64,000 nt of DNA from Alphaproteobacteria bacterium (lineage in GTDB: Bacteria; Pseudomonadota; Alphaproteobacteria; Rs-D84). Position 1 is the stretch's first letter, and each line of letters starts with the position of its first letter. Below, piece after piece: positions 3,524 through 60,867 of the stretch. Below the pieces are notes generated by a model. That model had not been told where the DNA came from. It ran no database searches and was given only the letters and a program-made list of their open reading frames with translations. The stretch is taken from positions 8,670-72,669 of the forward strand of contig JAIDWS010000035.1 of the NCBI GenBank assembly GCA_029059055.1, read 5' to 3'. The position numbers and the translations under genes were made by a program.

Positions 3524-5005
3524 CTAAAACGCGTACTTTACACCGATGTGCAATCCGAACGATTGCCACGTGGCATATTTCAAAGAATTCGATACATCTT
3601 CGGTATGTGCCGGCACCGTTTCCAAAATCGGCAGATTATTGTCATCCAAGATATACTGGCCATTTTCATCAATCAAATAATGGCTGTATTCCGCGATGTA
3701 CAATTTGCCCGGGATTTTTCCCACATGGAAACAGTTTGTATCAACCTTGATTGACAATTTCAACCGGTCGGACAATCGGTAATCGTATTCCATTTCTGCG
3801 ACATACGAATATGCGCCTTTGCTGCCTTCGTCCAAGAAACTGGGGTTTTGTTGCCAATCCGTACGGTTGGGCCAAATACCTTCGGATGAATACTTTGGCA
3901 AACCGAACTGAACGTAAAAGCGCAACTTGTCGTTCAGTGTCATTTGCTTTTCCACTTCTAACCCGACGTAAAAACCACTCCATGTCGTGTTATAAATGTG
4001 CGTTGTACCGTCAATCCGCACCATGCCGTCACCACCGATGATGACGCAATCCCCGGCTTCAACACCCCACGGAATGGTACCCATGGCCGGGTCATAATCG
4101 CCGGTCACCAACTGGTTCCCCAATTCAAAGAACCCACTGCCTGGGGCCTGGACCAATTTGATATCTTCGGGCGACATACAAACCTGGTACCAATCATCGG
4201 GCGCGGTTGTCCCGACCGGCAACGTAAAATAATACCCTTCGGCATTGCCGTAAACATAATCGCCCTTGTCCGTCATTAACGGCAGATATATCCCGGGATT
4301 GGGATAAATATGGTCGGACATTTCCAGGTTATGTTTAAATATTTCGTATCCGATGGACGGCGACAATTTCCACCCGCCAATATCCCAGATATGATATGCC
4401 CCCAATCCGATACGCAAATGATTACTGCGCCCGGACATATCCCCCATGGAAATTGTAAATATCCCTTCGTATGGGCGCGCATGGTCGAACGGTTCCAAAT
4501 CGTAATCCATGGACAATCCCCCATGGTTTAAATCACCGTACGTATATTCGCCATACGCAAACAAATCGAAATTACGCAACGCAAAGTTATGTCGCGCCCC
4601 GACGGTCAATTCGTTAAAGACCATGTCATCCCATTCCAAGATGGAATTAACGCCGGTTTTAAATGTAAAATCTGCAAAGCGCCGTGTATATCCGGCATAA
4701 ATACTGGGCCCCTTTTCCGCGTCGGGCGCCAACGCAATACCGTTGGGCGTCATGGTGCCGTATGTTTGCGGCAAGGTTGCGGTGGCACGTGGCACTTCGT
4801 ACGATTGGGTGCGCGTTCCGACCACCTGTTTTTGTCCGGATTGGCCCACGTATTTGGTATACCCCTGGGCGGCATATTGCCCGTATCCCATTTGATTGGC
4901 GTTCTGGGTCTGGGTTTGATAATAAACAGGCACCCCTTCTTGGGCGGCAATCGCCCCCCCAGACATCAAGATTACAGACAAAAATGCAAAAAATCGTGTA
5001 TTCAT
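3524..5005 (-). CDS. Outer-membrane beta-barrel protein (porin-like), signal peptide MNTRFFAFLSVILMSGGAIAA
   Basis: Signal peptide. Tyr/Gly-rich alternating hydrophobic strands. C-terminal ...KYAF aromatic residue typical of BAM substrates. The in-frame extension to 5182 lacks an RBS and is not used. Confidence 0.5.
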   Translation of the reverse strand: MNTRFFAFLSVILMSGGAIAAQEGVPVYYQTQTQNANQMGYGQYAAQGYTKYVGQSGQKQVVGTRTQSYEVPRATATLPQTYGTMTPNGIALAPDAEKGPSIYAGYTRRFADFTFKTGVNSILEWDDMVFNELTVGARHNFALRNFDLFAYGEYTYGDLNHGGLSMDYDLEPFDHARPYEGIFTISMGDMSGRSNHLRIGLGAYHIWDIGGWKLSPSIGYEIFKHNLEMSDHIYPNPGIYLPLMTDKGDYVYGNAEGYYFTLPVGTTAPDDWYQVCMSPEDIKLVQAPGSGFFELGNQLVTGDYDPAMGTIPWGVEAGDCVIIGGDGMVRIDGTTHIYNTTWSGFYVGLEVEKQMTLNDKLRFYVQFGLPKYSSEGIWPNRTDWQQNPSFLDEGSKGAYSYVAEMEYDYRLSDRLKLSIKVDTNCFHVGKIPGKLYIAEYSHYLIDENGQYILDDNNLPILETVPAHTEDVSNSLKYATWQSFGLHIGVKYAF

Positions 5006-5068
5006 ACCTACTAATATCACGGGTATTATAACATAAAAATACAACCCACGCAAAGCGTTAATTATTCC

Positions 5069-6163
5069 GTGACAATCGCCCCGCCACAGATTATGATGAA
5101 AATCATGACACCGGCACACAATCTGTATATTCACGTCCCGTTTTGCATATCGAAATGCAATTACTGCGCTTTTTTTTCGCACCCATGTCGCACACCCGAT
5201 TGGGACGCGTACGCATCCGCCATTTGCGACGAAATCAAATCATGGCGCGAACGCCTGGGGCAAATTGTCATCCCCACCGTTTTTTTCGGCGGCGGGACAC
5301 CGTCACTGATGCCGACACAAACATTCGGCCAAATCATGACATGCATTGCACAAAATTTTGACATTGCGCCGGGGGCGGAAATTACCCTGGAATCCAATCC
5401 GGGGACACTGGACGCGGCGCGCCTGCGTGAATTTATGGCCCATGGGATTAACCGTCTGTCGGTGGGGGTTCAATCATTGAACGATGACACGTTGCGCTTT
5501 TTGGGGCGACGCCACACGGCGGCGGACGCATTAACACTGATTGACACGGCGCACAAAATGGGACTGCGCACGTCGGGGGATTTTATATACGGCATCCCAG
5601 ACCAAACGGCCGACGATGTAACCCGCATGTGCCGGCAAATCAACGCGGTGGGATTACGCCATTGTTCCATGTACGAATTAACCATCGAACCCGACACACC
5701 ATTTGGAAAAATGAATCTGGCGATGCCGTCAAACGACACAATGGCCGACATGTACACCGCGATTGGCGAAACGTTGGCATTGCCCCGGTACGAAGTGTCG
5801 AATTACGCCGCCCTACCCGACCAATGCCGCCACAATGCGAACATCTGGGCGGGGGACGCATATATCGGATTGGGTCGCGGCGCGGCGGGGCGCGTTGTCA
5901 TTGACGGCATTTGGCACGACCAGATGGGGGCGGGCCTGCGCTGTGCGCCGATGACGTCCCACGACCGTGCGGTTGAAAAAATCATCACCGGCATGCGCAC
6001 CATGCGCGGCGTTCAATTAACAGATGACGTACGCGCGGCACTGGATTGGGATGCGGTTACGACATGCACCGACGCGGTGACCCTGCGCCCGGACGGATTC
6101 TTGGCCCCCACCGCAAAAGGCATATTGATTTTGGACAATTTACTGGTAAAATTAATTCGGTAA
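5069..6163 (+). CDS. hemW: Radical SAM heme chaperone HemW (HemN-like coproporphyrinogen oxidase family)
   Basis: LYIHVPFCISKCNYCAF (CxxxCxxC radical SAM), GGGTPS, HemW-type C-terminus. Confidence 0.8.
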   Translation: MTIAPPQIMMKIMTPAHNLYIHVPFCISKCNYCAFFSHPCRTPDWDAYASAICDEIKSWRERLGQIVIPTVFFGGGTPSLMPTQTFGQIMTCIAQNFDIAPGAEITLESNPGTLDAARLREFMAHGINRLSVGVQSLNDDTLRFLGRRHTAADALTLIDTAHKMGLRTSGDFIYGIPDQTADDVTRMCRQINAVGLRHCSMYELTIEPDTPFGKMNLAMPSNDTMADMYTAIGETLALPRYEVSNYAALPDQCRHNANIWAGDAYIGLGRGAAGRVVIDGIWHDQMGAGLRCAPMTSHDRAVEKIITGMRTMRGVQLTDDVRAALDWDAVTTCTDAVTLRPDGFLAPTAKGILILDNLLVKLIR

Positions 6164-14446: not shown

Positions 14447-15235
14447 ATGAAATTTGTTTTATGGACAATTGCGTGCGTGATGGGGATGCCGGCGGTGGCA
14501 TGGGGCGTATGCGATGGGGGAATGTATTTAAACGGCACCACATGCGAAAAATGCGTCGATGGGTATTATTGTCCCGGTGACGACACGCAACATCCATGTC
14601 CGACGGACACGACCGATTGGTACGGATTCGTATCAACACTGTACCCGGTGGACCGGGTGACGCAACAATCATGGCTGATGTCGTGGGACCCCGGTTCATC
14701 GACAAACGGGGCCATCTGGCCGGCGCATTGTTTCGCAGGTGTCTTTATATCCAGCCCATATGGGGAACTGTATATCGAAAGCTGGTATAACGGCACCAAT
14801 TACTGGAACGGCGAACAGGCGTTTTTGTGGTACCAGGCCAACCCCGGATATTATTTGGCCCAATATGTCGGGACGACATATCATGTCTGGTACCGATACG
14901 CCCGGCCATGCACAAATCTGCCGGAACATGCACATTATACCGGCGCCGGCACGCCCGATTCCGCCGATGGCACCATTCGGGATGCAAACGATTGCCCGTG
15001 GGAATGCGATGACGGATACGGCAATCATGACGGGGTGTGCGTGCCGTTGTGCGACGGCGTCAATCGGTTAAAGACCGGCAACGGTCGAACATTTAATTTA
15101 TACCCCATGGCATATACCACGCCGTCATTGCGCATTGAATATGGCGGCAAAACATGCTATGGCGTGTTAAAGTCGGGCGCGGCCGCATCAATCAATCTGC
15201 GATACAATAACCAAACGTATCACCTGTCTGACTAA
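14447..15235 (+). CDS. Secreted cysteine-rich protein (signal peptide; CEKCVDGYYCPG furin/TNFR-like Cys repeats; Trp/Tyr-rich core)
   Basis: Signal peptide MKFVLWTIACVMGMPAVAWG; Cys spacing reminiscent of eukaryotic Cys-rich repeats. Confidence 0.5.
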   Translation: MKFVLWTIACVMGMPAVAWGVCDGGMYLNGTTCEKCVDGYYCPGDDTQHPCPTDTTDWYGFVSTLYPVDRVTQQSWLMSWDPGSSTNGAIWPAHCFAGVFISSPYGELYIESWYNGTNYWNGEQAFLWYQANPGYYLAQYVGTTYHVWYRYARPCTNLPEHAHYTGAGTPDSADGTIRDANDCPWECDDGYGNHDGVCVPLCDGVNRLKTGNGRTFNLYPMAYTTPSLRIEYGGKTCYGVLKSGAAASINLRYNNQTYHLSD

Positions 15236-29716: not shown

Positions 29717-30376
29717 GTGGCAGACCGCATAGAGCCGCCGATTTTACTGTCCAGACTGATGACATTCGTCTTTGCCGCCGCGTTGGTGGTGGTGGTCGTA
29801 TTGGTGGTCACACTGGCCAAGATGTTCCCGCTGAACCGGCCCCAGATATTCTTTTTAACGACCCAGCCGCGCGCCGATTTGGAAATCCGGCTGTATCCGA
29901 TGCCGCCCAGCGACGAAAACGTTGATATTTACAAGCGCAGCTTTATCAAGGAATATATCAAGGCCCGCAATGAAATCATCCCGAACGTCGGCGTAATGCG
30001 CCGCAAATGGTCAAATACCGACGACGGCATCGTGAACATGTGGTCAACACCGGATGTGTATGCCACCATGACCCAGACGGATTTATGGACCGCGTACATG
30101 AACGATGTGCCGGACACAGAATTCTATTGCCCGGTGGAATTTGCCCCCAACGCCATTGCCCCGCGTTCAGAAAACACATATGCGGTCAGTTTTACGTATT
30201 TTTGCACAAATAATAATGGACAGACCGATAAAAAAGATTATACAATTGTAATCAGATTGGAATCTGACGAAAACCCGACGATTAAGTGGGGGGACCGCCT
30301 GAATAACCCGTTGGGGATTCGTGTGGCCGAATATACGGTTGAATCCGGAAACGGTGACCCGTTGGACTTTAAATAA
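29717..30376 (+). CDS. virB8: VirB8/TrbF-like bitopic inner-membrane protein (short cytoplasmic tail, one TM, periplasmic domain with C-terminal NPLG motif); GTG start
   Basis: Topology and C-terminal ...RLNNPLGIRVAEYTV (NPxG motif of the VirB8/NTF2-like family). First gene of a 3-gene operon with VirB9/VirB10 homologues. Confidence 0.5.
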   Translation: MADRIEPPILLSRLMTFVFAAALVVVVVLVVTLAKMFPLNRPQIFFLTTQPRADLEIRLYPMPPSDENVDIYKRSFIKEYIKARNEIIPNVGVMRRKWSNTDDGIVNMWSTPDVYATMTQTDLWTAYMNDVPDTEFYCPVEFAPNAIAPRSENTYAVSFTYFCTNNNGQTDKKDYTIVIRLESDENPTIKWGDRLNNPLGIRVAEYTVESGNGDPLDFK

Positions 30377-30415: not shown

Positions 30416-31954
30416 ATGACTTTTTCAAAAGCATTGAAGTTAAACGTATCCGTAATTTGCCTGGGGGCGTTGTGCTGTGCGGCACCGGCCGGGGCGGCGA
30501 CCGAATACGGGATTCAATCGGCATGGGACAATCCCAACGCCAACATGGCCGCCGGCAGTATTAAGCCCGGATATGCCCAGTTGTCTTGGTCCGCGGGCAA
30601 TGTTTTGCCGATTAAATTGCGCAATGGTATGGTGACAATGGTCACGTTGCCCAACGGCGAACAGATTGCCGACGCCCAGATTGGTAACGCCGGTCTGTTT
30701 GATATCCAGGCGACCCAGGGTGAACGCACCATGTTCATCAGCCCCATGCCGGACAATCTGGGGTCGGATACGAACCTGATTGTGATTGGCAAATCGGGCA
30801 ATGTTTATACTTTTTATCTGCGCAGCGAACCGTCGAATTCCAGTGAAATCACCCATTCCCAGGTGGACGTCGTTCTGGACGGCAACGCCAGTCTGCCGAT
30901 GGCATCGGCCACCGGCACCACATCGGGCGGCATGAATTCTATATTCAAGAAAAAGGCGTCATCGACCGCATCCACTGTTGGTGTTGACGGCGAAGATTAC
31001 GGTTGGATTAAATCGATGAAAATCGACCCGTCGGAATTTCGTTTCGATTTGGATATTTTCGTACCGAACCCGGATGATTACGTCATTGCGCCCGAACGCG
31101 TCTGGCGCGACCGCATCTTTACATACATTGATTTCGGGGACAAAGTCATCGCCATGACCCAGCGTCCGGTTGTATCCCTGTTGGTCGAAGGTGGCGAATC
31201 CCCGGTCGGATTCCGCACCGATGGCGAAGACGGTCGTCTGTTAATTGTCGAAGCGGTTGGCGACATGGTTCTGCGCAGTGGCCAACGCATCGTTTGTATT
31301 AAAAAGCGTGAAAAACCGTTCTTGATTGCGGATACGGCGTCTGTTATGGCATTGGCCGAAGCGAACGTTGCCCAATCCATGTTGTCGGGTCAATCGCTGA
31401 ACAATATTGCGTATAACGCAGACCTGGCCGCGATGAGTGGGTCTGTCAACAATTACACCACGACACCAATGTTTTCGTATAATGGCGCCGCGCCCCAGCA
31501 GATGAACGCCGGCGTATACGGCGGATATTATGCACCCACGGGTTATAATGCACCGGCACCGACATCGGGTGGTGTGACCATGTTGCCGACCGAACGCAAC
31601 ACGGCGGGGGCATATTTGCCGCAAACAAACATTCCGTTAATCACCAGCAACCAAACCGGCGTTGCGGTGGAATTGAAATCCGACACATCGGTCAAGGCTT
31701 TGAATGATTACTGGACGGGCTTGCTGGCGAAATTCAGCGGCGAAGACGGCCAGGGTCTGTTGACACCGTACAAAGACAGCGTGTTCTTTGCGGTCGATGA
31801 ACAGGGTGTCGGCGACCTGGGGGCGGATTCATCAACGGCGCGCCTGTACCGTTTGCGCATCGGGCCGATGTCCGACATTGACACCGCCCAGCGTCTGTGT
31901 GACCAGATGTTGAAATTCAGCGGCACCAGTTGCCACGTTGTGCGCATTCAGTAA
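30416..31954 (+). CDS. virB9: VirB9/TrbG/CagX-like protein with a low-complexity linker and a C-terminal SPOR-like domain
   Basis: Signal peptide; N-terminal domain ...TNLIVIGKSGNVYTFYLRS; C-terminal beta-sandwich ...GDMVLRSGQRIVCIKKRE. Terminal RLRIGPMSDIDTAQRLCDQMLKFSGTSCHVVRIQ resembles the FtsN SPOR domain (RVVIGPVKGKENADSTLNRLKMAGHTNCIRL). Confidence 0.7.
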   Translation: MTFSKALKLNVSVICLGALCCAAPAGAATEYGIQSAWDNPNANMAAGSIKPGYAQLSWSAGNVLPIKLRNGMVTMVTLPNGEQIADAQIGNAGLFDIQATQGERTMFISPMPDNLGSDTNLIVIGKSGNVYTFYLRSEPSNSSEITHSQVDVVLDGNASLPMASATGTTSGGMNSIFKKKASSTASTVGVDGEDYGWIKSMKIDPSEFRFDLDIFVPNPDDYVIAPERVWRDRIFTYIDFGDKVIAMTQRPVVSLLVEGGESPVGFRTDGEDGRLLIVEAVGDMVLRSGQRIVCIKKREKPFLIADTASVMALAEANVAQSMLSGQSLNNIAYNADLAAMSGSVNNYTTTPMFSYNGAAPQQMNAGVYGGYYAPTGYNAPAPTSGGVTMLPTERNTAGAYLPQTNIPLITSNQTGVAVELKSDTSVKALNDYWTGLLAKFSGEDGQGLLTPYKDSVFFAVDEQGVGDLGADSSTARLYRLRIGPMSDIDTAQRLCDQMLKFSGTSCHVVRIQ

Positions 31955-32000: not shown

Positions 32001-34436
32001 ATGAATAAGATAGCCAAACAATTTTCCGACCTGCGTCAGACAACGCCAAAGCATATCCAGTGGTTACTGTTGGTGGCGGCGTTTATCGTTGTGTTGATTT
32101 TGTTGACACTGTTGCTGCGGGGGCGCGCGGATAAATCCGACGCCGTAACATTGCCCGACGATGAAAATTTGACATTGACGATTGACCCCGACAGCGTGGA
32201 TTGGGCCACCACCACCGTCGGCACGAAAAAGACGCAAAAAATCACCATATCCACCACCGGTGCGGTAAAAATTGTGGCGGTACGTCTGTCCCGCGAAGTG
32301 GCGGGATTATCCACCCCCAAAACGACATGCACCAACATGGGTGAAATCAATGACAAGATTTCATGTACAATCAACCTGACCTATGAACCGACGGTCCCGA
32401 TGGATACAACGGGGGTATCGCTGTTTGTGGATTGGCGTGGCGTGGACGCCCCCGACGGCATGACGCGCGCGGAAAAAATCCCGATGGCGCTGGGGGCGGT
32501 GTCGCCCACCCCGGTGATTCAACCGGCGACAAAACCGGAACCGGCGATCATTGAACCGACCCCGGAACCGACGCCTGTGGTCATGCCGGAACCCGAACCC
32601 AAACGTTCCGAACCGAAACAGGAAATCCAACGTGACATCGCAACCATCGCGCCCCCTGTGCCGATGATTGATTCCAAATCGGAACCGACACCGACGGTGA
32701 CCAGTGCGCCGGCCATCGCCACCCCGGTTTCAGACAACGCCCCCATCCCGACGGATGGCTGTTCGGATTTTTCATTCCCGGGATATAACACATCGGGTCA
32801 ACAGATTGGGTGGATAAAACCGGACCGCGGTGCGTATTATTTCTATCCATTTTCGGACCGCGAATGCAAAAACGCCACCGGCAAATATAATCCCGACAAC
32901 GGTATTATCACGGCCATCAACAATCCGGCCCAGAAAATCGGAACAGACGCCGAACATATCGGATACACAACAATATCCAATGGTTCGGTACCGCAATTGT
33001 CGAACCCGGCGGACACCCGAAATGTTAATCGGGCGCGCCAACTGACCAGTGCTGAATTGACCCAATCCATGGGCGGTGGCATGGGCGCGGCCCGCGTTAA
33101 TTTGAACCCGGCCCCGGCATCGGATATTTTATATACGACATCCGACACAAATGTTATTCCATCAACCCAGCCGTATGACCGGTCGTTCATCCTGCGCCAA
33201 TATAAACCGATTCCGGCCACCATCGTATCTGATGTGCGCGCCGACGCCACATTGATTAATGGCCAACAATTCTTGCCTGTGCGCGCAACGGTTGACCGCA
33301 ATGTGTATTCGGACAACGGCCGTACGGTTATTATCCCGACCGGGACATTGATGTTGGGGTATGTCACCGGCGAAGTGCCCGGCCCATACAAGACCATTGG
33401 TCGCATGGAAATCAAATGGTACCAGTTTGTTTTGCCCAACGGCGTTGAATTTAATTTCGGCGGCGCGACCGATCCGTTTTCCGGTGATGCCCAGGGGCGT
33501 ATTGGCGTTCCCGGCCGGGGCAGTACGGATTATCTGGAACAATTTGTGATGCCCATGCTGACGGCGATTGTACCGGCGGCGGTCAACATGATTGCGCCCA
33601 TTGCGGATAAATTTGTGAACCAAATTGATTTGGATAACAATACGGTTGTGCAATCCGGCACGGTCCGTTCATCCGAATTGGCGAAAAATGAAATCATCAC
33701 GGCCTGGAACCAGGTGGCCCAGAAATTAATGGTCGACATGATGGACAACACCACACCGCCATTTACCATTGCGGCCGGGACACGCATTACGGTTTATTCG
33801 CCCCAGGATTTGGCGGTGGTCTGCATGGATGATTCCAAGAAATGTTCGTTACAACATTTAATGCAAAAATCCCCGACGGGTAACTCTGCGCGTGCGACCC
33901 CATCGCCTAATATCACATATAATCCCAATGACGGTTCATGGGTTGGCCAGGCACGTTCATTTAACATGGATCAATATTGCAAACAAAATGCGAACAAGGT
34001 TTGGGAAGTAGACAGTTCGCTGGCGGCACAAATCACCCAAGATTCCGGGTATTCATACAGCACCGTGGTTGCGTATTGCCAATCCAAGAATTACCAGGCC
34101 ATTAATAATGCCAGACAAGATGCCCTGTTCCAGAACCAGCAACAGACATTTGGCCAGAATGTAACATCCAGTTCCACAAATCTGACGGGGATATCTGGTG
34201 ATACCACATATAACCAGGAAATCTTGGGCTTGAAATATAACGACAATGGCACTATACAAAATCCGTTCCAGCAATTACCGGTTGAAACACCGCCGGCGCC
34301 CACCCTTACATGTGAAGATGGGACCAACCCGGATGCCAACGGTTGCTGTACCGGGGAAATCTATACCGACATGGGCGACCAGGGATTTAACTGTTGCCCG
34401 GAAACCGGTGGCGATTGTTTCCCGCCGATATTATAA
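32001..34436 (+). CDS. virB10: VirB10/TrbI-like protein (N-terminal TM, Pro-rich linker, VirB10 beta-barrel domain) with a ~250-aa Cys-rich C-terminal extension
   Basis: Pro-rich PTPEPTPVVMPEPEPK. VirB10 domain: IPATIVSDVRADATL..VRATVDRNVYSDNGRTVIIPTGTLMLGYV..RMEIKWYQFVLPNGVEFNF..GDAQGRIGV..TIAAGTRITVYSPQDLAV. Extension ends CCTGEIYTDMGDQGFNCCPETGGDCFPPIL. Confidence 0.75.
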   Translation: MNKIAKQFSDLRQTTPKHIQWLLLVAAFIVVLILLTLLLRGRADKSDAVTLPDDENLTLTIDPDSVDWATTTVGTKKTQKITISTTGAVKIVAVRLSREVAGLSTPKTTCTNMGEINDKISCTINLTYEPTVPMDTTGVSLFVDWRGVDAPDGMTRAEKIPMALGAVSPTPVIQPATKPEPAIIEPTPEPTPVVMPEPEPKRSEPKQEIQRDIATIAPPVPMIDSKSEPTPTVTSAPAIATPVSDNAPIPTDGCSDFSFPGYNTSGQQIGWIKPDRGAYYFYPFSDRECKNATGKYNPDNGIITAINNPAQKIGTDAEHIGYTTISNGSVPQLSNPADTRNVNRARQLTSAELTQSMGGGMGAARVNLNPAPASDILYTTSDTNVIPSTQPYDRSFILRQYKPIPATIVSDVRADATLINGQQFLPVRATVDRNVYSDNGRTVIIPTGTLMLGYVTGEVPGPYKTIGRMEIKWYQFVLPNGVEFNFGGATDPFSGDAQGRIGVPGRGSTDYLEQFVMPMLTAIVPAAVNMIAPIADKFVNQIDLDNNTVVQSGTVRSSELAKNEIITAWNQVAQKLMVDMMDNTTPPFTIAAGTRITVYSPQDLAVVCMDDSKKCSLQHLMQKSPTGNSARATPSPNITYNPNDGSWVGQARSFNMDQYCKQNANKVWEVDSSLAAQITQDSGYSYSTVVAYCQSKNYQAINNARQDALFQNQQQTFGQNVTSSSTNLTGISGDTTYNQEILGLKYNDNGTIQNPFQQLPVETPPAPTLTCEDGTNPDANGCCTGEIYTDMGDQGFNCCPETGGDCFPPIL

Positions 34437-34696: not shown

Positions 34697-35044
34697 ATGA
34701 CACAACAAACCATGCAGACATCCATCCCGGCCGAAAAGTTTCAAAGTGCGGAACAACTGTGGTTTTGGTTTTTGTACGCGCGCAGCGTACGCAATGGGTT
34801 TGTCCGGGGCCACATGTCGTCCCAGCGTCGCGTATGCGAATTGCTGGACGTGGAAACATTGGTAACGAAACTGTATTTGGCGGGTCGGTTATCCGACGCG
34901 CAACTGGCCGTCATGAAAGAATTTGGCGACCGGCGCCGCGCCCCGCACCAGCACATCTGGGCAGAAAATAAAAAGGCTGAATTATGGCGCACCGCCATGT
35001 CGGTTTTAAATGCTGCGGCGACCGCACGTGGTTGGATTGAATAA
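34697..35044 (+). CDS. Hypothetical protein (115 aa)
   Basis: RBS caaggagag; no recognisable motif. Confidence 0.35.
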   Translation: MTQQTMQTSIPAEKFQSAEQLWFWFLYARSVRNGFVRGHMSSQRRVCELLDVETLVTKLYLAGRLSDAQLAVMKEFGDRRRAPHQHIWAENKKAELWRTAMSVLNAAATARGWIE

Positions 35045-40890: not shown

Positions 40891-42003
40891 TTAATGAAAG
40901 ATAAAACAATCGATACCGTTGGCCGATGCGTTGGCTTTCAAATTGGCCGCCGCACCGTCTGATAAATTATTCACGCGCACCCGGAACATTCCGTTCGGCG
41001 CCGGTTCAATTGTCGGCGTGACATTCAACGCCGCACGCACGCGCGCAATCTGGGTCTGGGCCGCGTCCCGCGATGCAAATGCCCCGAATTGAACACCCGC
41101 ATTTCCCGGCGTATGCGTTGTCGGGGGCGTCGTCACAGTTGATGCACGCACCGGCACATTTTGCGTTGGCGCCGCGGTTTTTGTGGATTGAACCGTTACC
41201 GGCGCGGTGCCGTTGTCCAACATGGCGAACCCCTTGTTCAACATGTTTGTCGACACAGCCGCCCGAACATCTTTGTTTTCCGCCCCCAACACCACCGATA
41301 TCAGACGACGGTTTCCCCGCTTGGCCGTGGCGACCAATGAATATTTGGATTTGTTGGTAAATCCGGTCTTCATCCCGTCACAGCCCGGATACGTTCCCAA
41401 CAACCGGTTACCGTTGGTATATGTTTTTCCGTTATACGTCCACGATTTGATGCCGAAATATTTCCAATATTGCGGAAAATGTTTATACACCGCCATCGAC
41501 AATAATGCGATGTCCCGGGCGGTTGACATCTGGTCATCGTTGGGCAACCCGGATGAATTTTCAAAGTGCGTTTTGGCCAATCCGATTTCGGTGGCGACGC
41601 GCGTCATCAGTGATGCAAAGTTCCCTTCTTTGCCACCCTTTAAATTTTCGGCCAACACGCGTGCGACATCATTCGCACTTAACACTGCGACGGCCTTAAT
41701 CGCGTCTTCGACGGTGATTTTGCTGCCCGCGGCCAGCCCCAGTTTAACCGGCGACGCGTTTGCCGCCGATTGCGACACAATCAGATAATCATCCAGATGT
41801 AACCGTCCATGTTCCAACGCATCAAACGTCAGATACAACGTCATAATTTTGGTAAGACTTGCCGGGTAATTCAAATCGCCCGCATTTTCAGAATACAGCA
41901 CACGCCCCGTATCCATATCGGCAACCAATGCCGCGCGATATCCACCGGCATTTGCCACCCCACACAGGCATATTAATAAAAAGGATACGATGCCAAATCT
42001 CAT
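40891..42003 (-). CDS. D-alanyl-D-alanine carboxypeptidase (PBP5/DacC-like) with a C-terminal SPOR domain
   Basis: SLTKIMT (SxxK), SGN, KTG motifs; C-terminal ...FRVRVNNLSDGAAANLKANASANGIDCFIFH. Confidence 0.8.
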   Translation of the reverse strand: MRFGIVSFLLICLCGVANAGGYRAALVADMDTGRVLYSENAGDLNYPASLTKIMTLYLTFDALEHGRLHLDDYLIVSQSAANASPVKLGLAAGSKITVEDAIKAVAVLSANDVARVLAENLKGGKEGNFASLMTRVATEIGLAKTHFENSSGLPNDDQMSTARDIALLSMAVYKHFPQYWKYFGIKSWTYNGKTYTNGNRLLGTYPGCDGMKTGFTNKSKYSLVATAKRGNRRLISVVLGAENKDVRAAVSTNMLNKGFAMLDNGTAPVTVQSTKTAAPTQNVPVRASTVTTPPTTHTPGNAGVQFGAFASRDAAQTQIARVRAALNVTPTIEPAPNGMFRVRVNNLSDGAAANLKANASANGIDCFIFH

Positions 42004-44077: not shown

Positions 44078-46069
44078 TTGCGAATGCGTGGTATAAATTC
44101 CTATACTCTATCCATGCGGGAATTTATCAGCGAACAGTTTGCAAACCGGTTCTTGTGGACGCCATTCTTGATGGCGTTTGGTGCGGCGTTGTATTTTGCC
44201 ATGGGCACCGAACCCGTCATTCCCGGGATGGGCATTATGGCTGCGATACTGTTTGCGGCCGCGTTTGTTTCGCGCATACCGCTGATTCTGCGCGGGATGT
44301 TTCTGTTCGCATTTGGATTCTGCTATGCGGCGGCATTTACACATGTTATCGACACACCGCAAATTTCACGCAATTTGCGTGACCTGGATATTTCCGGAAC
44401 AATCACCAAAATTGAATATACAGATACCAAGACGCGTGTCCATATTCGCATCCCGGCCAATTTGATTAACCGCGATATGCCGCAACACCGCCACGCAAAC
44501 ATCCGCGTATCAATGTCTGAAATGCCAACGCCCATCCATATCGGCGATATCATTGATGCGCGCGTTTCACTGTTTCGACCGGCCGGCGCATATATGCCCG
44601 AAACATTTGATTATGCACGTTGGACGTATTTCAACAGATTGTCCGCAACCGGTTTTGTTCAAAATTATACCGTTACCCCAACCCAGACCCGCAATATCAA
44701 CACGATGCGTGATGCGATTCACAACCATGCGCATTCGTTTTTGTCCGACACACTGGTTCTGGGATATAAATCGGCATTACCGGATGACGACCGCACCATT
44801 TGGACGACAAACGGTGTGGGTCATGTTTGGTCCATCAGTGGATTTCACATGACATTGGTGTCGGGATGGTTATTTGCGTTTTTCTATTTAATCTTTCGCA
44901 TGATATCACCATTGACCCGGCGCGTACCGGCCCGCATCCCCGCCATGATTTGCGCATGGGTGGGATTGCTGTTTTATCTGTTTCTGTCGGGTGGCGGAAT
45001 TGCAACCATCCGTGCATTTATGATGACCAGTTTAATCTTTGCGGCATTTGTCAGTGGCCGCGAAGCCCTGTCGATGCGAAACATATGCCTGGCATTTTGT
45101 CTGATATTTCTGATAAATCCGCACTATGTCATGCAACCGGGATTTCAATTATCATTTTCCGCCGTGTTTGGATTGATTTGGTATTTTCGCGACACCACGT
45201 ATCAAAAACGCACATTGCCCCAGAAAATCAGACGCGCCATTTGTGCCGCGGCCATGACATCGGTCATCGCCACGATTTTCACCATGCCGTTTGTCGCCGC
45301 CCACTTTTATCAAATACCGACATATTCACTGATTGGCAACCTGATACTGTTGCCGGTGTTTTCCGTGATGATTATGCCACTGGTCATGGTGGGGACGTTA
45401 ACCGCAACATTGGGATGGACCGGCCCGTTGGTTTTGGCGGAAATGATTTACAACGTTGTGTTGGTGGTGGCGACCCGGATTGCGTCATTGCCGTTTGCCA
45501 CCATATTGACACCGCATGTGCCAAACAGTGCGATTGTATTCATGATATTGGGATTTTTGTGTCTGATGTTTATCCGCGCATCACGCCCCAGAATCAATTA
45601 CATATTATGCGCGACATGTATCGGTGTCGGCATGGGTATCACCGCATTAACACCGCGCCCGATATTCTATGCAACGGCCGACCATGAATTGATTGGATTT
45701 GTGGCGGCGGATGGTAAACTGGAATTTAACAAATCGCGCGCATCCAATCATTTCTTTGCGTTCGACACGTGGAAGCAAATAAATATCGAACCGCCCCGCA
45801 CACCAAACCGTCGGCGTAAATGCGTACATGGTGTTTGCAAATTTGAAACTGAAAATTGGATACTGGCATATACCCAGAAATTTGTACCGACGATGAATAA
45901 TATTGTTCAATTTTGTCGCGACCCGTCAATTGATTACATCGTGTCATATTTTGATATCGATGCACCGCACTGTAACCATAAAATTCTGCGGGGCGGATTT
46001 GCGATTTATAAATCCGGTCGCGTGCGCCATGTGACTATGCGTCGTCCGTGGCATAATCCGCGCCGATAA
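44078..46069 (+). CDS. comEC: ComEC/Rec2-family DNA-internalisation membrane protein (no C-terminal beta-lactamase domain)
   Basis: Polytopic; ...VGHVWSISGFHMTLVSGWLF... competence-domain signature. Confidence 0.7.
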   Translation: MRMRGINSYTLSMREFISEQFANRFLWTPFLMAFGAALYFAMGTEPVIPGMGIMAAILFAAAFVSRIPLILRGMFLFAFGFCYAAAFTHVIDTPQISRNLRDLDISGTITKIEYTDTKTRVHIRIPANLINRDMPQHRHANIRVSMSEMPTPIHIGDIIDARVSLFRPAGAYMPETFDYARWTYFNRLSATGFVQNYTVTPTQTRNINTMRDAIHNHAHSFLSDTLVLGYKSALPDDDRTIWTTNGVGHVWSISGFHMTLVSGWLFAFFYLIFRMISPLTRRVPARIPAMICAWVGLLFYLFLSGGGIATIRAFMMTSLIFAAFVSGREALSMRNICLAFCLIFLINPHYVMQPGFQLSFSAVFGLIWYFRDTTYQKRTLPQKIRRAICAAAMTSVIATIFTMPFVAAHFYQIPTYSLIGNLILLPVFSVMIMPLVMVGTLTATLGWTGPLVLAEMIYNVVLVVATRIASLPFATILTPHVPNSAIVFMILGFLCLMFIRASRPRINYILCATCIGVGMGITALTPRPIFYATADHELIGFVAADGKLEFNKSRASNHFFAFDTWKQINIEPPRTPNRRRKCVHGVCKFETENWILAYTQKFVPTMNNIVQFCRDPSIDYIVSYFDIDAPHCNHKILRGGFAIYKSGRVRHVTMRRPWHNPRR

Positions 46070-55557: not shown

Positions 55558-56148
55558 ATGGCTGCAAAGACAATTTATATTTTTAGACATGGTCAAACAG
55601 ACTATAACGCCACAGGGCGCGTTATGGGTCGGTTGGATATACCATTGAACGAAACAGGGATACAACAGGCAACAGAACTGGCCAATAAAATGTCGGGCAT
55701 TGATATTAAGGCAATATATTCTTCGCCACTGTCACGTGCGATGCAAACAGCACAAATCGTGGCTAACAAAATCGGCGTAAAGATAACACCAAATGACGGG
55801 TTAATGGAACGACATAATGGGAATCTGCAAGGGCATATTGTTCATATAACAGATAATCCCGAACAATATCAGACCGACTATAAACAAACAGAACTTGTTT
55901 TGCCGGCAGAACAATTAAACGATGAAAATTGGCGACCCGAAGGCGGTGAATCACGAATAGAATGCTTTAAACGCGCCCAACAAACGATTACGGACATCAT
56001 AAAAACATCCCCTTATGACACAATTGCCATATCAACACATGGCGGACCAATGGTCGGGATATTGGATTTAGTTGGCGGCACATCAGAGCGCATTGGAAAC
56101 TGTGACTATGTAAAATTAACCTTTGATGGTAAAAAGTTAGAGAGATAA
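55558..56148 (+). CDS. Histidine phosphatase (phosphoglycerate-mutase-like) family protein
   Basis: IYIFRHGQTDYNATGR (RHG catalytic motif); ...STHGGPM... Confidence 0.75.
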   Translation: MAAKTIYIFRHGQTDYNATGRVMGRLDIPLNETGIQQATELANKMSGIDIKAIYSSPLSRAMQTAQIVANKIGVKITPNDGLMERHNGNLQGHIVHITDNPEQYQTDYKQTELVLPAEQLNDENWRPEGGESRIECFKRAQQTITDIIKTSPYDTIAISTHGGPMVGILDLVGGTSERIGNCDYVKLTFDGKKLER

Positions 56149-56254
56149 AATTTAACATAGGGCATCCGTTGCCCTATGTTTTTAATACAGACTTCACTGA
56201 TTCAATTTCATCTCTCATTTTGATTAAATCAGTTCGAAAATTGCTAGTCAGACA

Positions 56255-56343
56255 CAACCACAGTTAAAAAATCCGCCCACCGGGGCGGTTTTTAGTTGAA
56301 TCTGCAATCATCGTGCCAAGTTCGAATGTTTGATTTTCAAAAT
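56255..56343 (+). repeat. att-like direct repeat 3 (degenerate copy)
   Basis: aaccacagttaaaaaatccgcccaccggggcggttttt..tgcaatcatcg..agttcgaatgtttgattttcaaaat parallels copy 2. Confidence 0.55.
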
Positions 56344-56391
56344 CGTTAATTTTTGATAACTTTCGAACTTGTTTATGGTATAATATTCTAT

Positions 56392-57489
56392 ATGAAAACA
56401 GATAGTTATACAAAAGCCATAGACAATATTTATAATCGGATTGGCCATGCCGTAGTACAAGGTATACCAACCTTAGATCATATTATGGGTGTTGAAAATA
56501 TGTCTGAAGCAGATAAAATCTGGTACGAAGCATATAAAAAATACGGCAACCGAAATCACACATGGCAAGATTTTAGAGATATGTTTTATGGTGATGTTGA
56601 CGTTATGCAAAAGACAGTTGTACACTGGAAAACATGGGACGAAATAAATAACACGTTATCACAAGCATATGATTTAGTGCCAGAAATAAGAAGATTGATG
56701 AGAGAATATGGTATTAACTCTATCAATGTGACCAAATTAGAAGAATACAAACAATACCCTGATTTAGTATCAGTCTGCAAAAAATATCGTGAAATTGGTA
56801 GTATGGCGTATCAAAACTATTCTACATTTAATCCACAGATTGCAAAACTGGAAAAAGCGTTCGAAAAAAAATCGAAACTGATAGCGGTCGATGACAAAAA
56901 AGCAAAAATTGATTTAATTGTAGAATACCTAGAAAAAATGGATGAGTATGTAGATTTGCAAAATGGCGATTTTGTCGTTGCAGAACGCATAGAAACATAT
57001 CGTGAAATTATATTAAAAGACCAACAAATATTAAAGCTGGCAAAAGATTTTGATAAAATATCTGGCTCACAAAAGGTTGATTTAGCACGTATGATTTTAA
57101 ACAAAAGTGCAAAAATTACAGGCACACCAACAGGCCAAGTTATTCAAGATGACGCCCCGGCTGGCCCGCATGTCCTAACCGGTAATCAAGTCGCCGGATA
57201 TGTTGAGAATCGTAAAGAATTTTTATTCAGAGGTGATGATTTAACGACCCTATGGACCTTTTTGAAATATTTGGTCCATGAAGATGCTCATAGAATAGAT
57301 TACTATAATGCAGAATATGGGATGATTGGAACGCAACTTATGAAATTTGTGAATGATAATTATGTTAATAATGCAGACATAGATGTTGAATTGTATCGTA
57401 AATTTGCCACAGAACAAAGTTCATATTATCTTGATCGCACTACGGCTTCTGCTTTAGAATATGCAATAATGCATCAATCTCGTGGCTAA
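56392..57489 (+). CDS. Hypothetical protein (366 aa) in the AT-rich island
   Basis: AT-rich; no recognisable motif. Confidence 0.4.
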   Translation: MKTDSYTKAIDNIYNRIGHAVVQGIPTLDHIMGVENMSEADKIWYEAYKKYGNRNHTWQDFRDMFYGDVDVMQKTVVHWKTWDEINNTLSQAYDLVPEIRRLMREYGINSINVTKLEEYKQYPDLVSVCKKYREIGSMAYQNYSTFNPQIAKLEKAFEKKSKLIAVDDKKAKIDLIVEYLEKMDEYVDLQNGDFVVAERIETYREIILKDQQILKLAKDFDKISGSQKVDLARMILNKSAKITGTPTGQVIQDDAPAGPHVLTGNQVAGYVENRKEFLFRGDDLTTLWTFLKYLVHEDAHRIDYYNAEYGMIGTQLMKFVNDNYVNNADIDVELYRKFATEQSSYYLDRTTASALEYAIMHQSRG

Positions 57490-57621
57490 TCTTAATTAAA
57501 TCAATTCAACTACGCATAGGTAAGCCAAACGTAGTGTCGGCGAACCGTCAGGAATACCGCACTGAAGCAATACAGGACTGAATAGAAGTGTTTCTAGCGT
57601 TTTTGTTCATCGAAGAAGTAA

Positions 57622-58829
57622 TTAATCATAAAACACAATTAACTGCTCAAGAGATATATTAACACCTGCTTTTTGTAATTCTCTGATATTGGTTTCATAA
57701 AGCTTTGTTAATATATCGCGTTTTTCATTATCTGTTGCCAAATGTACCTGCCGATGACAGACAGGACACAGAGCAACGATATTTTCAACAATATCAATAT
57801 TTACATCAAACTCATTGCGTTTACAAAACGGTATCAAGTGATGCCCTTCTACAAATGGCATATTGTTAGCTTTGGCTGTAAATGTTCTATGACGCGGATT
57901 CACTTCACACATATAACGACTGCGCAATTTTCGCGCTTCTTTAACATTTGGATTGGCATGTAATAACGTATCTACATCGTCATCATTGTCTAATCCTAAA
58001 GCTAATCGTTTCTTTAATAATTCTTGCTCTGCAATTCGCCCATCTTGATAGTCTATCGCTAATTTGTTTATCTGTAATGCTCTGTTATAATTCTTATATT
58101 CCTTTACATTAGATAAATCTTGTTTATCAAAATACAAACCATCTATCTGTGTAAGATGCTTCCCGGTTTCCTTTTCATAAAAAGACCTTTTAAAGGGATA
58201 CAAGAATCCATATTCAGACACAAAAATTTTTAGCGGTATTCTGAACTGGTCGTTCTTTGCCTTACTATTTTTTTGCAATACTCGTGGATTAAAATTAAAA
58301 AATTGTCCAGTCATATTAGACAGTGTCATATATTTACGCCTGGCTAAATTTGGATATTTTTTCTTTTCCCAATCAACAGTTACCAGTTTTCTACTAAAAT
58401 CCAGTGAACAACGAGCATTAAATAAACCAGAAACAAAATATCGAATACATTCGTTTGAAAAATCCATTGTAGCTTTTTCAATATACCCATAAATGCGCGC
58501 CCTGCCTATTTCAGTAGTATCATCTAAACTATTAGTTTCAGTAAATTTGACAGAACAAACCCAAGATGTCTTATTAGACGAACAATCTATATCATCAGAT
58601 AATATCGCAGTTCCTTTGATAAAGTCTGCAAGAACTTGCCTGTTTGGCTCATTTAATTGCGTGTATTCATTATCACTAAAATTCTTGCGTATTCTAGTGC
58701 CTGTCCTTCCAGACGAATATGCCAACACATAACCATTTTTTACAATTGGCCAACCATAAACCATGCCCAAAAAGAATGCATATTTAGGATTTTTTTTGGA
58801 TTGTTCAAGTAATTCATTAAATGTCATTA
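57622..58829 (-). CDS. HNH-nuclease-domain protein, putative restriction endonuclease
   Basis: C-terminal ...FVEGHHLIPF...NIVALCPVCHRQVHL (HNH, Zn-binding Cys). Adjacent to two DNA methyltransferases. Confidence 0.55.
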
Positions 58830-59557
58830 AAAATCCTTTTATAAGCCATGTTATAATATGTGTCGTCCAATTCAATACCAATAAAGTTACGATTTTGTTT
58901 TATGCACGCAATTCCTGTGCTACCGCTTCCCATAAATGGGTCCAAAACCGTATTGTCTTTGTTTGTAAATATCTTGACCAACTCTTCCATCAAAAATACC
59001 GGCTTTTGAGTTGGATGACCTAACCGTTCTTTACCAGATGGACACGGACATTTTATTTCTGGCCTTAAATAGCTATCAGTAGAATTGTTAAACGTCCATT
59101 TTGACTTTCCTTTAACACACCATATAGCCAATTCATAGTCGGCCACAAAACGACTATCCATATTACGTGGCATAGGATTTGGTTTTAACCATCGTATCAA
59201 GTCTTTTACGGCATAACCTTTGGCTTCTAAATATTTTGCAATATTTCCTATATTCAAAAAACTATTAAAAACAATAATATTACCACCGTCTTTTAACAAT
59301 TTATCCGCAACATCAAGCCACGTAAATAAATCAAAGCCCTTATCCCAGGTTCCAAAATCAATCCCTTGCCGTTTAGCATTTTTCATCGTGGAAAAATTAT
59401 TGTCTTTTGAAATATTGTATGGTGGGTCAGTTATTATTGCATCGACTTTTATTTTATCTTTAATCAGACCAGCCATGACATTCACGCAATCACCGTGTAA
59501 TAATTGTACGGATTCTCTTTGAAACCAATCAGTAAAATATTGTTCTTTTTTAGTCAT
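58817..59557 (-). CDS. DNA methyltransferase (N6-adenine/N4-cytosine class, DPPY motif)
   Basis: AIITDPPYN (motif IV) precedes the SAM-binding motif: beta-class amino-methyltransferase. Confidence 0.8.
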   Translation of the reverse strand: MTKKEQYFTDWFQRESVQLLHGDCVNVMAGLIKDKIKVDAIITDPPYNISKDNNFSTMKNAKRQGIDFGTWDKGFDLFTWLDVADKLLKDGGNIIVFNSFLNIGNIAKYLEAKGYAVKDLIRWLKPNPMPRNMDSRFVADYELAIWCVKGKSKWTFNNSTDSYLRPEIKCPCPSGKERLGHPTQKPVFLMEELVKIFTNKDNTVLDPFMGSGSTGIACIKQNRNFIGIELDDTYYNMAYKRIFNDI

Positions 59558-60612
59558 TGTCAGCCTTAATTATTTCCAAAGCAATTGCTTTCGCTAATTT
59601 TGGGGGCACAGCATTGCCAATTTGTTTTATTACAGATGATTTATTCCCATAAAAAATATAGGCGTCGGGAAACGATTGAATCCTTGCCGCTTCGCGTGGG
59701 GTGATAGAACGATTTAAGAACGGATGATTATTCTGTCCATTAGACGGTGTATCAAATCTCGTCACAATCGTTGGCGATGGCTTATCTTTCTCTAATCTGC
59801 ACCAGGTTCCACCGAATGTTGATTTAGTTAGATGTTCCTTTGGTAAAAATTCTTTACCTTTTTCAGGCGGAATCATTGCTAGTCTCTGTATCGCAACATC
59901 TGAATGTTTTGTCGCCATATGGTTGTATAACTTCTTGCTATTTGCTCTCAATTCTTTTTGATATTTAGATTCAGACTTGTTTTTATAATCAGCAACAAAT
60001 TCCCCTTCGCCAGATTCTAAATAGGCCAAATCAGATATCGCATCCCAAACCGAAACAATTTTCTGTTTTGTATCCATTTTTGGTATTTTTGCTTTACCAT
60101 CACGCGAACCTATAAATACGGCTCTACGTCTAGTTTGCGGAACACCAAAATATCTTGCATCCAAAATACCATAATCAACTTTATATCCCTGTTCCCGTGC
60201 TTCTTTTAAAATCAAATCTAAGAAATAGCCATCAGCGGTCCCCAACAAGGCAGCAACATTCTCAATAACGAAATACTTAGGCTTGAAAAAAGAAGTGTAT
60301 TTAAAGAATTCTTTAAACAGATAATTTCTTTCGTCATCTTTACCGAGACATTTTCCACGAGTTGAAAAACCCTGGCAAGGCGGCCCTCCAACTATAATAT
60401 CAATCGGCTGTTTAAGGGCTTTTGCAACTGCTTTTATGTCTAGTTTGCAAATATCACCAATGAAAACTTTTGTGTTAGGATTGTTTTTAGCATAAGAATC
60501 TGCAATAGACGGCTCTAATTCTAACGCACCAACTAGATTAAAACAGCCAGTTTGTTCAAAACCAAGACTCAGCCCACCAACGCCTGCGAATAATTCTAGC
60601 AGATTTAACTTT
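59550..60612 (-). CDS. DNA (cytosine-5)-methyltransferase
   Basis: LELFAGVGG (motif I), GGPPCQGFS (motif IV), ENV (motif VI). Real start MRKLNLLELF... Confidence 0.85.
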
Positions 60613-60867
60613 CTCATTTCTTTTCCGTCTCTTTGAGAATGAATTATAATAAAGTCAATAAAAAAATGATATAAAAAAATTATATCATCCCATATTCTAC
60701 TTGTTATCCGTGGCTTCAAGTAAACAAGTACACACAAACTGTGTATACATAATGAGCAAGATCCACATAAAAAGAAAATATACGTATACAGAAAGCTCGG
60801 GATGCCCTTTACACACAAATTACTAAGCCACCCAACAAAAATAAAACCCGCCGGGTGGCGGGTATGA

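Follow-up and report, generated by a model that had tools for sequence, protein, structure and literature searches.

The virB10 gene and its product

The stretch of DNA analyzed here, 64,000 nucleotides of contig JAIDWS010000035.1 from an alphaproteobacterium of the Rs-D84 lineage (hereafter the window, to which all positions refer), carries a virB8–virB9–virB10 operon, the third gene of which encodes a VirB10 protein with a conserved, Cys-rich C-terminal tail. The virB10 homologue (32001..34436, +) is a single open reading frame (ORF) of 811 codons followed by a stop codon. It is preceded by the virB8 homologue (29717..30376, +; 219 residues; Pfam VirB8, E 1.3e-12), which is the first gene of the operon, and by the virB9 homologue (30416..31954, +; 512 residues; Pfam CagX at residues 55–297, E 1.4e-21).

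The Pfam TrbI domain (PF03743) was matched by residues 400–604 of the virB10 product with a score of 64.9 bits, against a gathering cut-off of 35, and the same domain was present in every full-length homologue listed. Sequence matches in the PDB were to CagY (the best, E 1.9e-4), ComB10 (the second best, E 4.3e-4), X. citri VirB10 and TrwE. The protein has the short cytoplasmic N terminus, single membrane helix, Pro-rich region and barrel that are typical of the family, with a topology predicted from the sequence, and its gene has the family's operon setting, with VirB8 and CagX/VirB9 genes directly upstream on the same strand. The assignment as a VirB10 homologue made in an earlier, sequence-only reading of the same DNA is thus upheld. 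However, the protein did not reach the cut-offs of either of the two NCBIfam equivalog models, scoring 61.1 bits against 220 for VirB10 (NF038091) and 50.4 bits (E 1.7e-13) against 300 for ComB10 (NF038092), and we therefore consider it a divergent member of the family rather than an equivalog. We are highly confident of this identity and of the anatomy of the protein described below.

The motif FTIAAGTRITVYSPQDLAV occupies residues 588–606, which places the end of the barrel at residue 606 and defines the C-terminal extension as residues 607–811 (33819..34433, +), a total of 205 residues. The sequence-only reading had the barrel ending at about residue 560, followed by roughly 250 more residues; the first figure is about 45 residues too low and the second about 45 too high, and the start that it gave for the extension, position 33660, corresponds to residue 554, which is still within the barrel.

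Integrity of the reading frame

Among 5.8 billion proteins searched, there were more than 119 full-length homologues, which are 776–848 residues long, show 56–81% identity at 100% coverage and originate from many assembly projects. A partial NCBI entry, labelled 'MAG: hypothetical protein ... [Alphaproteobacteria bacterium]' (MAG, metagenome-assembled genome), was 100% identical. When 185,579 species genomes were scanned, a relative was found to be encoded in 232 of them, and the loci from 80 of these species were fetched for comparison. At all 80 loci, the terminal Cys module shares a stop-free frame with more than 700 VirB10 residues. In an alignment of 120 sequences, nine of the ten Cys in the tail were invariant and the tenth was at least 90% conserved.

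The ratio of nonsynonymous to synonymous substitution rates (dN/dS), computed against the closest relative (L001), was 0.17 (0.236/1.365) for the tail, 0.012 (0.009/0.782) for its last 45 residues and 0.005 (0.002/0.416) for the barrel. The tail is under purifying selection. An artefact could have arisen if a frameshift in sequencing or assembly had fused a separate gene to virB10, or if untranslated sequence happened to be open by chance. Its sole hint is the lower GC content at third codon positions in the tail (about 0.52, down from about 0.62), and it is ruled out to near certainty by the full-length proteins from different projects, the open frame in 80 of 80 independent species assemblies, the invariant Cys and the purifying selection acting in this frame. 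The earlier reading had taken the single long ORF to be real, and had named a frameshift, with the tail as a separate gene, as the finding that would overturn it; these lines of evidence settle both points in its favor.

The Cys-rich tail

The tail contains ten Cys, at residues 608, 615, 660, 693, 771, 782, 783, 798, 799 and 806, corresponding to a density of 4.9% (10 in 205 residues), compared with 0.7% (four Cys) in the first 606 residues. The Cys-rich character noted previously was thus evident, and both of the CC pairs then quoted are present. The tail sequence had no match in Pfam (to E 5), NCBIfam or the PDB, and a tblastn search with the tail against 72,556 plasmids yielded no match.

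Immediately after the barrel is a short loop, C608-x6-C615 (33822..33845, +), of which both Cys were invariant in the 120 aligned sequences. After a variable stretch follows an alpha/beta subdomain (33930..34160, +) that, by profile search, is specific to VirB10; it includes the invariant pair C660/C693 and, in the AlphaFold2 model, a long helix at approximately residues 686–720. Further downstream, between a Q/N-rich linker and a Pro/Glu linker, lies the motif YNExxLGLxYxDxGxIQNPF (residues 737–756; 34209..34268, +), in which Y737, N738, L742, Y746, N754 and P755 are invariant. The protein ends in a six-Cys mini-domain, described in the next section.

The structure of residues 601–811 (211 residues) was predicted with AlphaFold2, resulting in a mean predicted local distance difference test (pLDDT) score of 65.9 overall. 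Only the part around residues 651–700 was modelled confidently, with 10-residue block means of 77–91. When the tail model was compared with the PDB by Foldseek, no match was better than E 0.96. Taken together, the pattern of conservation, the restriction of confident modelling to residues 651–700 and the confident modelling of the terminal mini-domain on its own (mean pLDDT 88.4) show that the tail is modular, consisting of a Cys loop, the VirB10-specific alpha/beta subdomain, flexible linkers and the mini-domain.

The linker at approximately residues 716–765 exists in two distinct versions among the aligned homologues. These versions do not follow the similarity of the first half of the tail, a pattern in the alignment that suggests recombination inside the tail.

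A six-cysteine mini-domain shared with other envelope proteins

The consensus of the terminal mini-domain (residues 768–811, about 45 amino acids; 34302..34433, +) reads C-x-DG-x2-P[DN]-x2-GCC-x-GE-x-[YF][TK]D[ML]G-x3-F[NA]CCP-x2-GGDCFPP[ILM], giving the Cys arrangement C-CC-CC-C. The six Cys, together with one Gly, did not vary among 106 diverse copies. The AlphaFold2 model of the mini-domain alone, made with the 106-copy alignment, has a central beta-hairpin.

A profile search of 1.84 billion representative proteins with the tail returned 251 hits. The whole profile matched only the VirB10 proteins of about 800 residues; its last 43 or so positions also matched many other proteins. For 149 of the 251 hits, the sequences were retrieved and classified into four architectures. 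The first comprises 17 VirB10 proteins or fragments thereof. The second, with 22 members, is a family of bitopic proteins of about 635–850 residues (the ~700-residue family), in which a conserved cytoplasmic N-domain is combined with a coiled coil, a single membrane helix and a long Pro-rich linker, ahead of the module; in some of these, the match to the tail profile reaches upstream of the module. The third and largest (62 proteins of 141–400 residues) usually has a signal-peptide-like start followed by one to three modules. The remaining 45 proteins are of 140 residues or less, and many of them consist of an N-terminal hydrophobic segment with the module starting about eight residues further on. 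Three of the 149 hits had no separate match to the module. Among the other 146 proteins, the last module lies 0–7 residues from the C terminus in 144. Internal copies also occur, as in P0137, which has three mini-domains in tandem.

Nearly all of the named carriers of the mini-domain are 'Alphaproteobacteria bacterium' MAGs. Neither the mini-domain nor the proteins that bear it had a match in Pfam (even with E up to 5) or in NCBIfam, and profile searches of the PDB with the tail or the mini-domain were empty or gave E values above 0.5. When the mini-domain model was compared with the PDB and BFVD by Foldseek, all matches were at E 0.96 or worse. These results show that the mini-domain is an undescribed, lineage-restricted and separable unit that is common to VirB10 and three other architectures of envelope proteins, and a candidate for a new domain family. 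The VirB10 copy is the only one in the window, and no second copy was found within 10 kb of virB10 in the 80 species.

In two related genomes, a module-only protein is encoded by the last gene of a conserved MacB-type operon that adjoins ftsQ-ftsA. One of them, at L081:8001-8255, has 84 residues and consists of a hydrophobic segment and the module; the other, at L088:10001-10753, has 250 residues, with a signal peptide and two modules. The order of products in the operon is a protein of ~107 residues, one of ~450 residues, the MacB-type permease, a protein of ~245 residues, the ATP-binding cassette (ABC) ATPase and a protein of ~190–237 residues; the unnamed partners had no Pfam match. Genes for the ~700-residue family were located, likewise in related genomes, at L087:8653-10812 and L084:133-2373. 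Their products have the conserved cytoplasmic N-domain (RKWDDILSNDYGVDLETVRPK...) and had no family match. The neighbor of these genes is acpS, and in L087 the opposite flank is occupied by gcrA.

Domains preceding the tail

The N-terminal membrane anchor is the hydrophobic run IQWLLLVAAFIVVLILLTLLL (residues 19–39; 32055..32117, +), which follows a predicted cytoplasmic tail of 18 residues and is nearly invariant among the aligned homologues. It is followed by an extra Ig-like domain at about residues 58–165 (32172..32495, +), identified by weak matches only (NCBIfam choice-of-anchor D, E 1e-4; Pfam ASH, E 0.011) and containing the Cys pair 110/122, of which C122 is invariant and C110 at least 90% conserved in the homologue alignment. 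The long Pro/Thr/Glu-rich linker between the membrane segment and the barrel that had been noted earlier is present at about residues 166–250 (32496..32750, +), as read from the sequence, and differs in length among the homologues. A second extra domain, at about residues 251–345 (32751..33035, +), stands out as a dense block of invariant columns from C254 to A345, including the invariant Cys pair 254/289, and had no match in Pfam.

The TrbI/VirB10 barrel, defined by the Pfam TrbI and PDB matches, extends from residue 393 to 606 (33177..33818, +). Within it, the nearly invariant residues ~509–582 (33525..33746, +) can be read as a helix-loop-helix; X. citri VirB10 gave only a weak alignment (E 0.03). 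Presumably, this is the two-helix 'antenna' that lines the outer-membrane pore.

Gene context and host lineage

The product of the virB9 homologue is itself enlarged, with a C-terminal extension of about 215 residues after the CagX domain; its counterpart in a relative whose VirB10 is 56% identical also has 512 residues. Its end (residues 472–510) has a weak SPOR-like, peptidoglycan-binding match, with E 6e-4 and a score of 20.5 bits against a cut-off of 21. A clearer SPOR domain is found in a DacA-like carboxypeptidase encoded at 40894–42003. Downstream of virB10 is a conserved ORF of 115 residues (34697..35044, +), for which genes of the same length are called at the same position in the distant relatives L085 and L086. 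It had no match in Pfam or NCBIfam, and it holds the position that virB11 has in the listed plasmid virB operons.

The gene order, rpoB-L7/L12-L10-L1-L11-nusG-secE followed by virB8-virB9-virB10, the 115-residue ORF and yidC-lspA-kefB-ksgA-recR-dacA, is the same in a relative whose VirB10 is 56% identical, showing that virB8–virB9–virB10 is a core, chromosomal and vertically inherited operon. A plasmid-borne or recently acquired conjugation system was rejected on the basis of this conserved synteny with core genes and the low identity (24–30%) to plasmid VirB10 proteins. No genes for VirB4, VirB6, VirB2/B3/B5, VirB11 or VirD4 were found in the window or within 10 kb in the relatives, and the interval from secE to virB8 contains no called virB7-like gene.

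The named relatives are Candidatus Enterousia species and MAGs labelled as 'uncultured Alphaproteobacteria/Rickettsiales', from mouse, human, chicken, rumen and other guts, and the records of two relatives are closed chromosomes of 0.72 and 0.96 Mb. Enterousia was placed in the order Rs-D84 in a 2025 paper, which described genomes of less than about 1 Mb lacking respiration, the synthesis of amino acids, nucleotides and lipids, and standard transporters (PMC12306168). Its authors predicted an obligate symbiotic or parasitic lifestyle for the order, and did not mention a secretion system (PMC12306168). In the literature on Enterousia, Rs-D84 and C-terminal extensions of VirB10, we found no description of this protein, its architecture, the module or a type IV system in the lineage.

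Four other features of the window were noted. A ComEC homologue with Competence and DUF4131 domains is encoded at 44078–46066 (+), 10 kb from the virB genes. An ORF of 262 residues at 14447–15235 (+) has a signal-peptide-like start, many Cys and a weak match, short of the cut-off, to the TNF-receptor-like Cys-rich domain (E 5e-4), and lacks the VirB10 module. A low-GC stretch at about 56000–60800 (0.34–0.35, versus about 0.50 elsewhere) encodes an HNH-endonuclease-like protein (57625–58881, −) and a C-5 cytosine DNA methylase (59553–60818, −), and is probably an acquired restriction-modification island. Finally, a protein of 552 residues (3527–5182, −) matches the Protochlamydia outer membrane protein family (Pom, E 1e-10), an unusual type of porin for an alphaproteobacterium.

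Comparison with known systems

Like the canonical VirB10/TrbI proteins (A. tumefaciens VirB10, pKM101 TraF, R388 TrwE and X. citri VirB10), the protein has a TrbI barrel, an N-terminal anchor and a Pro-rich periplasmic linker, and its gene follows virB8 and virB9. Unlike them, it has two extra domains before the barrel and the 205-residue tail after it, and the barrel itself is only 24–30% identical to those of the plasmid proteins. In X. citri VirB10, 25 residues remain after the position aligned to residue 604, and among 434 plasmid records the matches extend no further than the barrel, none of the 434 covering 80% of the query. These results agree with the statement in the sequence-only reading that canonical VirB10 proteins end soon after the barrel. 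The operon differs as well, since virB11 directly follows virB10 in the listed plasmid operons, whereas here no virB11 follows and no virB7 was seen.

H. pylori CagY and Legionella DotG share with this protein the presence of a VirB10 barrel within a much larger polypeptide, and CagY was the best match in the PDB. In CagY, however, only the barrel aligns (residues 1686–1816 of 1927), it lies near the C-terminal end, and the additions are repeats that precede it; DotG resembles CagY in having its additions before a C-terminal barrel. Here, the distinctive addition comes after the barrel and consists of modules of the disulfide type rather than repeats, and for this reason we rejected a CagY/DotG-type architecture. 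The likeness to these proteins drawn previously was a loose one.

H. pylori ComB10, from a DNA-uptake type IV system, was the second-best match in the PDB; that system is likewise at a chromosomal locus without adjacent virB11 or virD4, and ComEC is found in the window. Given that CagY and ComB10 are the nearest relatives of solved structure (E ~2e-4 to 4e-4), a role of the VirB8–VirB10 machine in ComB-like DNA uptake is possible by analogy. On the other hand, the score is far below the cut-off for the ComB10 family (50 vs. 300 bits), ComB10 has no such tail, and no comB partner genes (comB2-4, comB6-9) were seen in the window.

A functional likeness of the tail to the extra globular parts that decorate the VirB9/VirB10 ring in other core complexes is possible. 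These parts include the N0 domain of X. citri VirB7 and the H. pylori proteins Cag3, CagT and CagM, which stabilize or anchor the ring. They are separate proteins, whereas here the addition is fused to VirB10, and VirB9 has a SPOR-like end. Neither the tail nor the module resembled any of these decorations in sequence or, by Foldseek, in fold.

In its length of about 40–45 residues, six Cys, beta-hairpin core and tandem occurrence in some proteins, the mini-domain is similar to other small six-Cys domains, such as granulin hairpin stacks, EGF-like and TNFR-like domains and knottins. None of these fits the C-CC-CC-C spacing, and in the Foldseek comparison with the PDB even the top matches exceeded E 1, with granulin C ranked only 19th at E 5.3.

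Possible roles of the tail

The best overall explanation that we can offer, although with slightly less than even confidence, is that the tail serves the outer-membrane core complex as a periplasmic docking arm stapled by disulfides. All Cys outside the membrane segment belong either to a local invariant pair (110/122, 254/289, 608/615 and 660/693) or to the six-Cys module, and after removal of the first 25 residues the Cys count is even in 58 of 61 mid-size module proteins, which argues for disulfides rather than a bound metal. All Cys would then form local disulfides, five of them in the tail, including three in the mini-domain, and such bonds would place the folding of the tail outside the cytoplasm. 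The tail leaves the barrel at its periplasmic end, and in the proteins of about 80 residues the module follows the N-terminal hydrophobic segment at a distance of about eight residues; the tail is therefore somewhat more likely to be periplasmic than to be located elsewhere. Should the hydrophobic segment anchor these small proteins in the membrane, their module would act close to the inner membrane.

Canonically, the core complex is a 14-mer, and the tails might thus form a ring of flexible arms around it, each tipped by a compact knob. Most likely, the knob would dock onto a partner shared by all proteins with the module, which could be a component of the envelope or a further knob, and thereby tether the channel within the envelope. 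A docking role of this kind is plausible but tentative. The tail and the SPOR-like end of VirB9 may together take over the stapling role of the missing VirB7 lipoprotein, as suggested by the 215-residue addition to VirB9 and the lack of a called virB7-like gene upstream.

Several points weigh against the docking-arm interpretation. The position of the tail, its binding partner and the formation of disulfides are all inferred rather than directly observed. Instead of anchoring the ~80-residue proteins, their hydrophobic start could be cleaved off as a signal peptide, in which case the argument for a location near the inner membrane falls. The module-only proteins that end the MacB-type ABC operon hint at export beyond the periplasm, and none of virB4, virB6, virB11 and virD4 is encoded in the window.

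An unlikely alternative is that the tail, or at least the knob at its end, extends to the cell surface, binds a partner cell and helps the channel to engage its target. The lineage lacks standard transporters and is predicted to depend on partner cells (PMC12306168), which would suit such a contact module. The module-only proteins encoded at the 3′ end of the conserved MacB-type ABC operon in two genomes might be exported. MacAB-TolC-type pumps can expel small disulfide-rich peptides from the periplasm, as they do with the enterotoxin STII, and small disulfide-rich knobs are well suited to harsh extracellular conditions. However, the tail begins at the periplasmic end of the barrel, and it is not evident how folded, disulfide-bonded tails on all subunits of the ring could cross the outer membrane. 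The occurrence of the mini-domain about eight residues after a hydrophobic N-terminal segment also argues against surface exposure, and no adhesin-like family or fold was matched in Pfam or by Foldseek in the PDB and BFVD. The surface exposure considered in the sequence-only reading is thus not supported by this topology.

More doubtful is a C-terminal address tag, in which the module would be read by a lineage-specific machine, such as the MacB-type system, that places, exports or attaches its carriers; in the case of VirB10, the tag would determine the site or the manner of complex assembly. The strictly terminal position of the last copy, its presence on otherwise unrelated architectures and its linkage to a conserved ABC-permease operon in two distinct genomes are all consistent with a tag. 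The C-terminal sorting signals that we know of consist of a short motif followed by a membrane helix, or of a cleaved beta-sandwich domain. The module, in contrast, is a folded six-Cys knob that also occurs in internal tandem copies, and VirB10, a fixed part of the structure with its anchor in the inner membrane, is not an obvious cargo.

In a similarly improbable but broader scenario, the six-Cys knob would represent a novel type of domain for the envelope or for cell contact, and would be the hallmark of a lineage-specific group of proteins comprising the channel, the periplasm-spanning protein of about 700 residues and the small MacB-adjacent proteins. With these, the gut bacteria, as obligately partner-dependent organisms, would attach to and draw on other cells. 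The VirB10 knob would then be located at or beyond the outer membrane, or be cross-linked in a disulfide-bonded envelope lattice like the chlamydial outer-membrane complex.

Very improbable, finally, is a metal-binding or redox module, in which the six Cys and conserved Asp/Glu residues would coordinate a metal or relay thiol redox in the reducing envelope of an anaerobe. The two CC pairs, the many conserved acidic residues, the fermentative, anaerobic gut lifestyle of the organisms and the automatic source label of P0143, 'uncharacterized Zn-finger protein', would fit, but the even Cys counts in the exported module proteins and the local pairing of the other VirB10 Cys are the usual signature of disulfides, AlphaFold2 folds the module confidently without a ligand, and no metal-binding family was matched in Pfam, NCBIfam or the PDB profile search.

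Significance

In type IV secretion systems, VirB10 is the subunit that crosses both membranes and gates the pore in the outer membrane, and to our knowledge no additions after its barrel have been described. The tail is a real and unusual elaboration of this central secretion subunit in a widespread, uncultured lineage that inhabits the guts of mice, humans, ruminants and birds. Its conservation and strong constraint in more than 200 species suggest that the core complex is anchored or coupled differently in these bacteria, possibly without VirB7. The terminal module can serve as a query for finding a whole set of linked envelope proteins, and is compact enough to be easily expressed and solved. 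In genomes of less than 1 Mb with no obvious nutrient transporters, the envelope machines are the main clue to how the organisms live.

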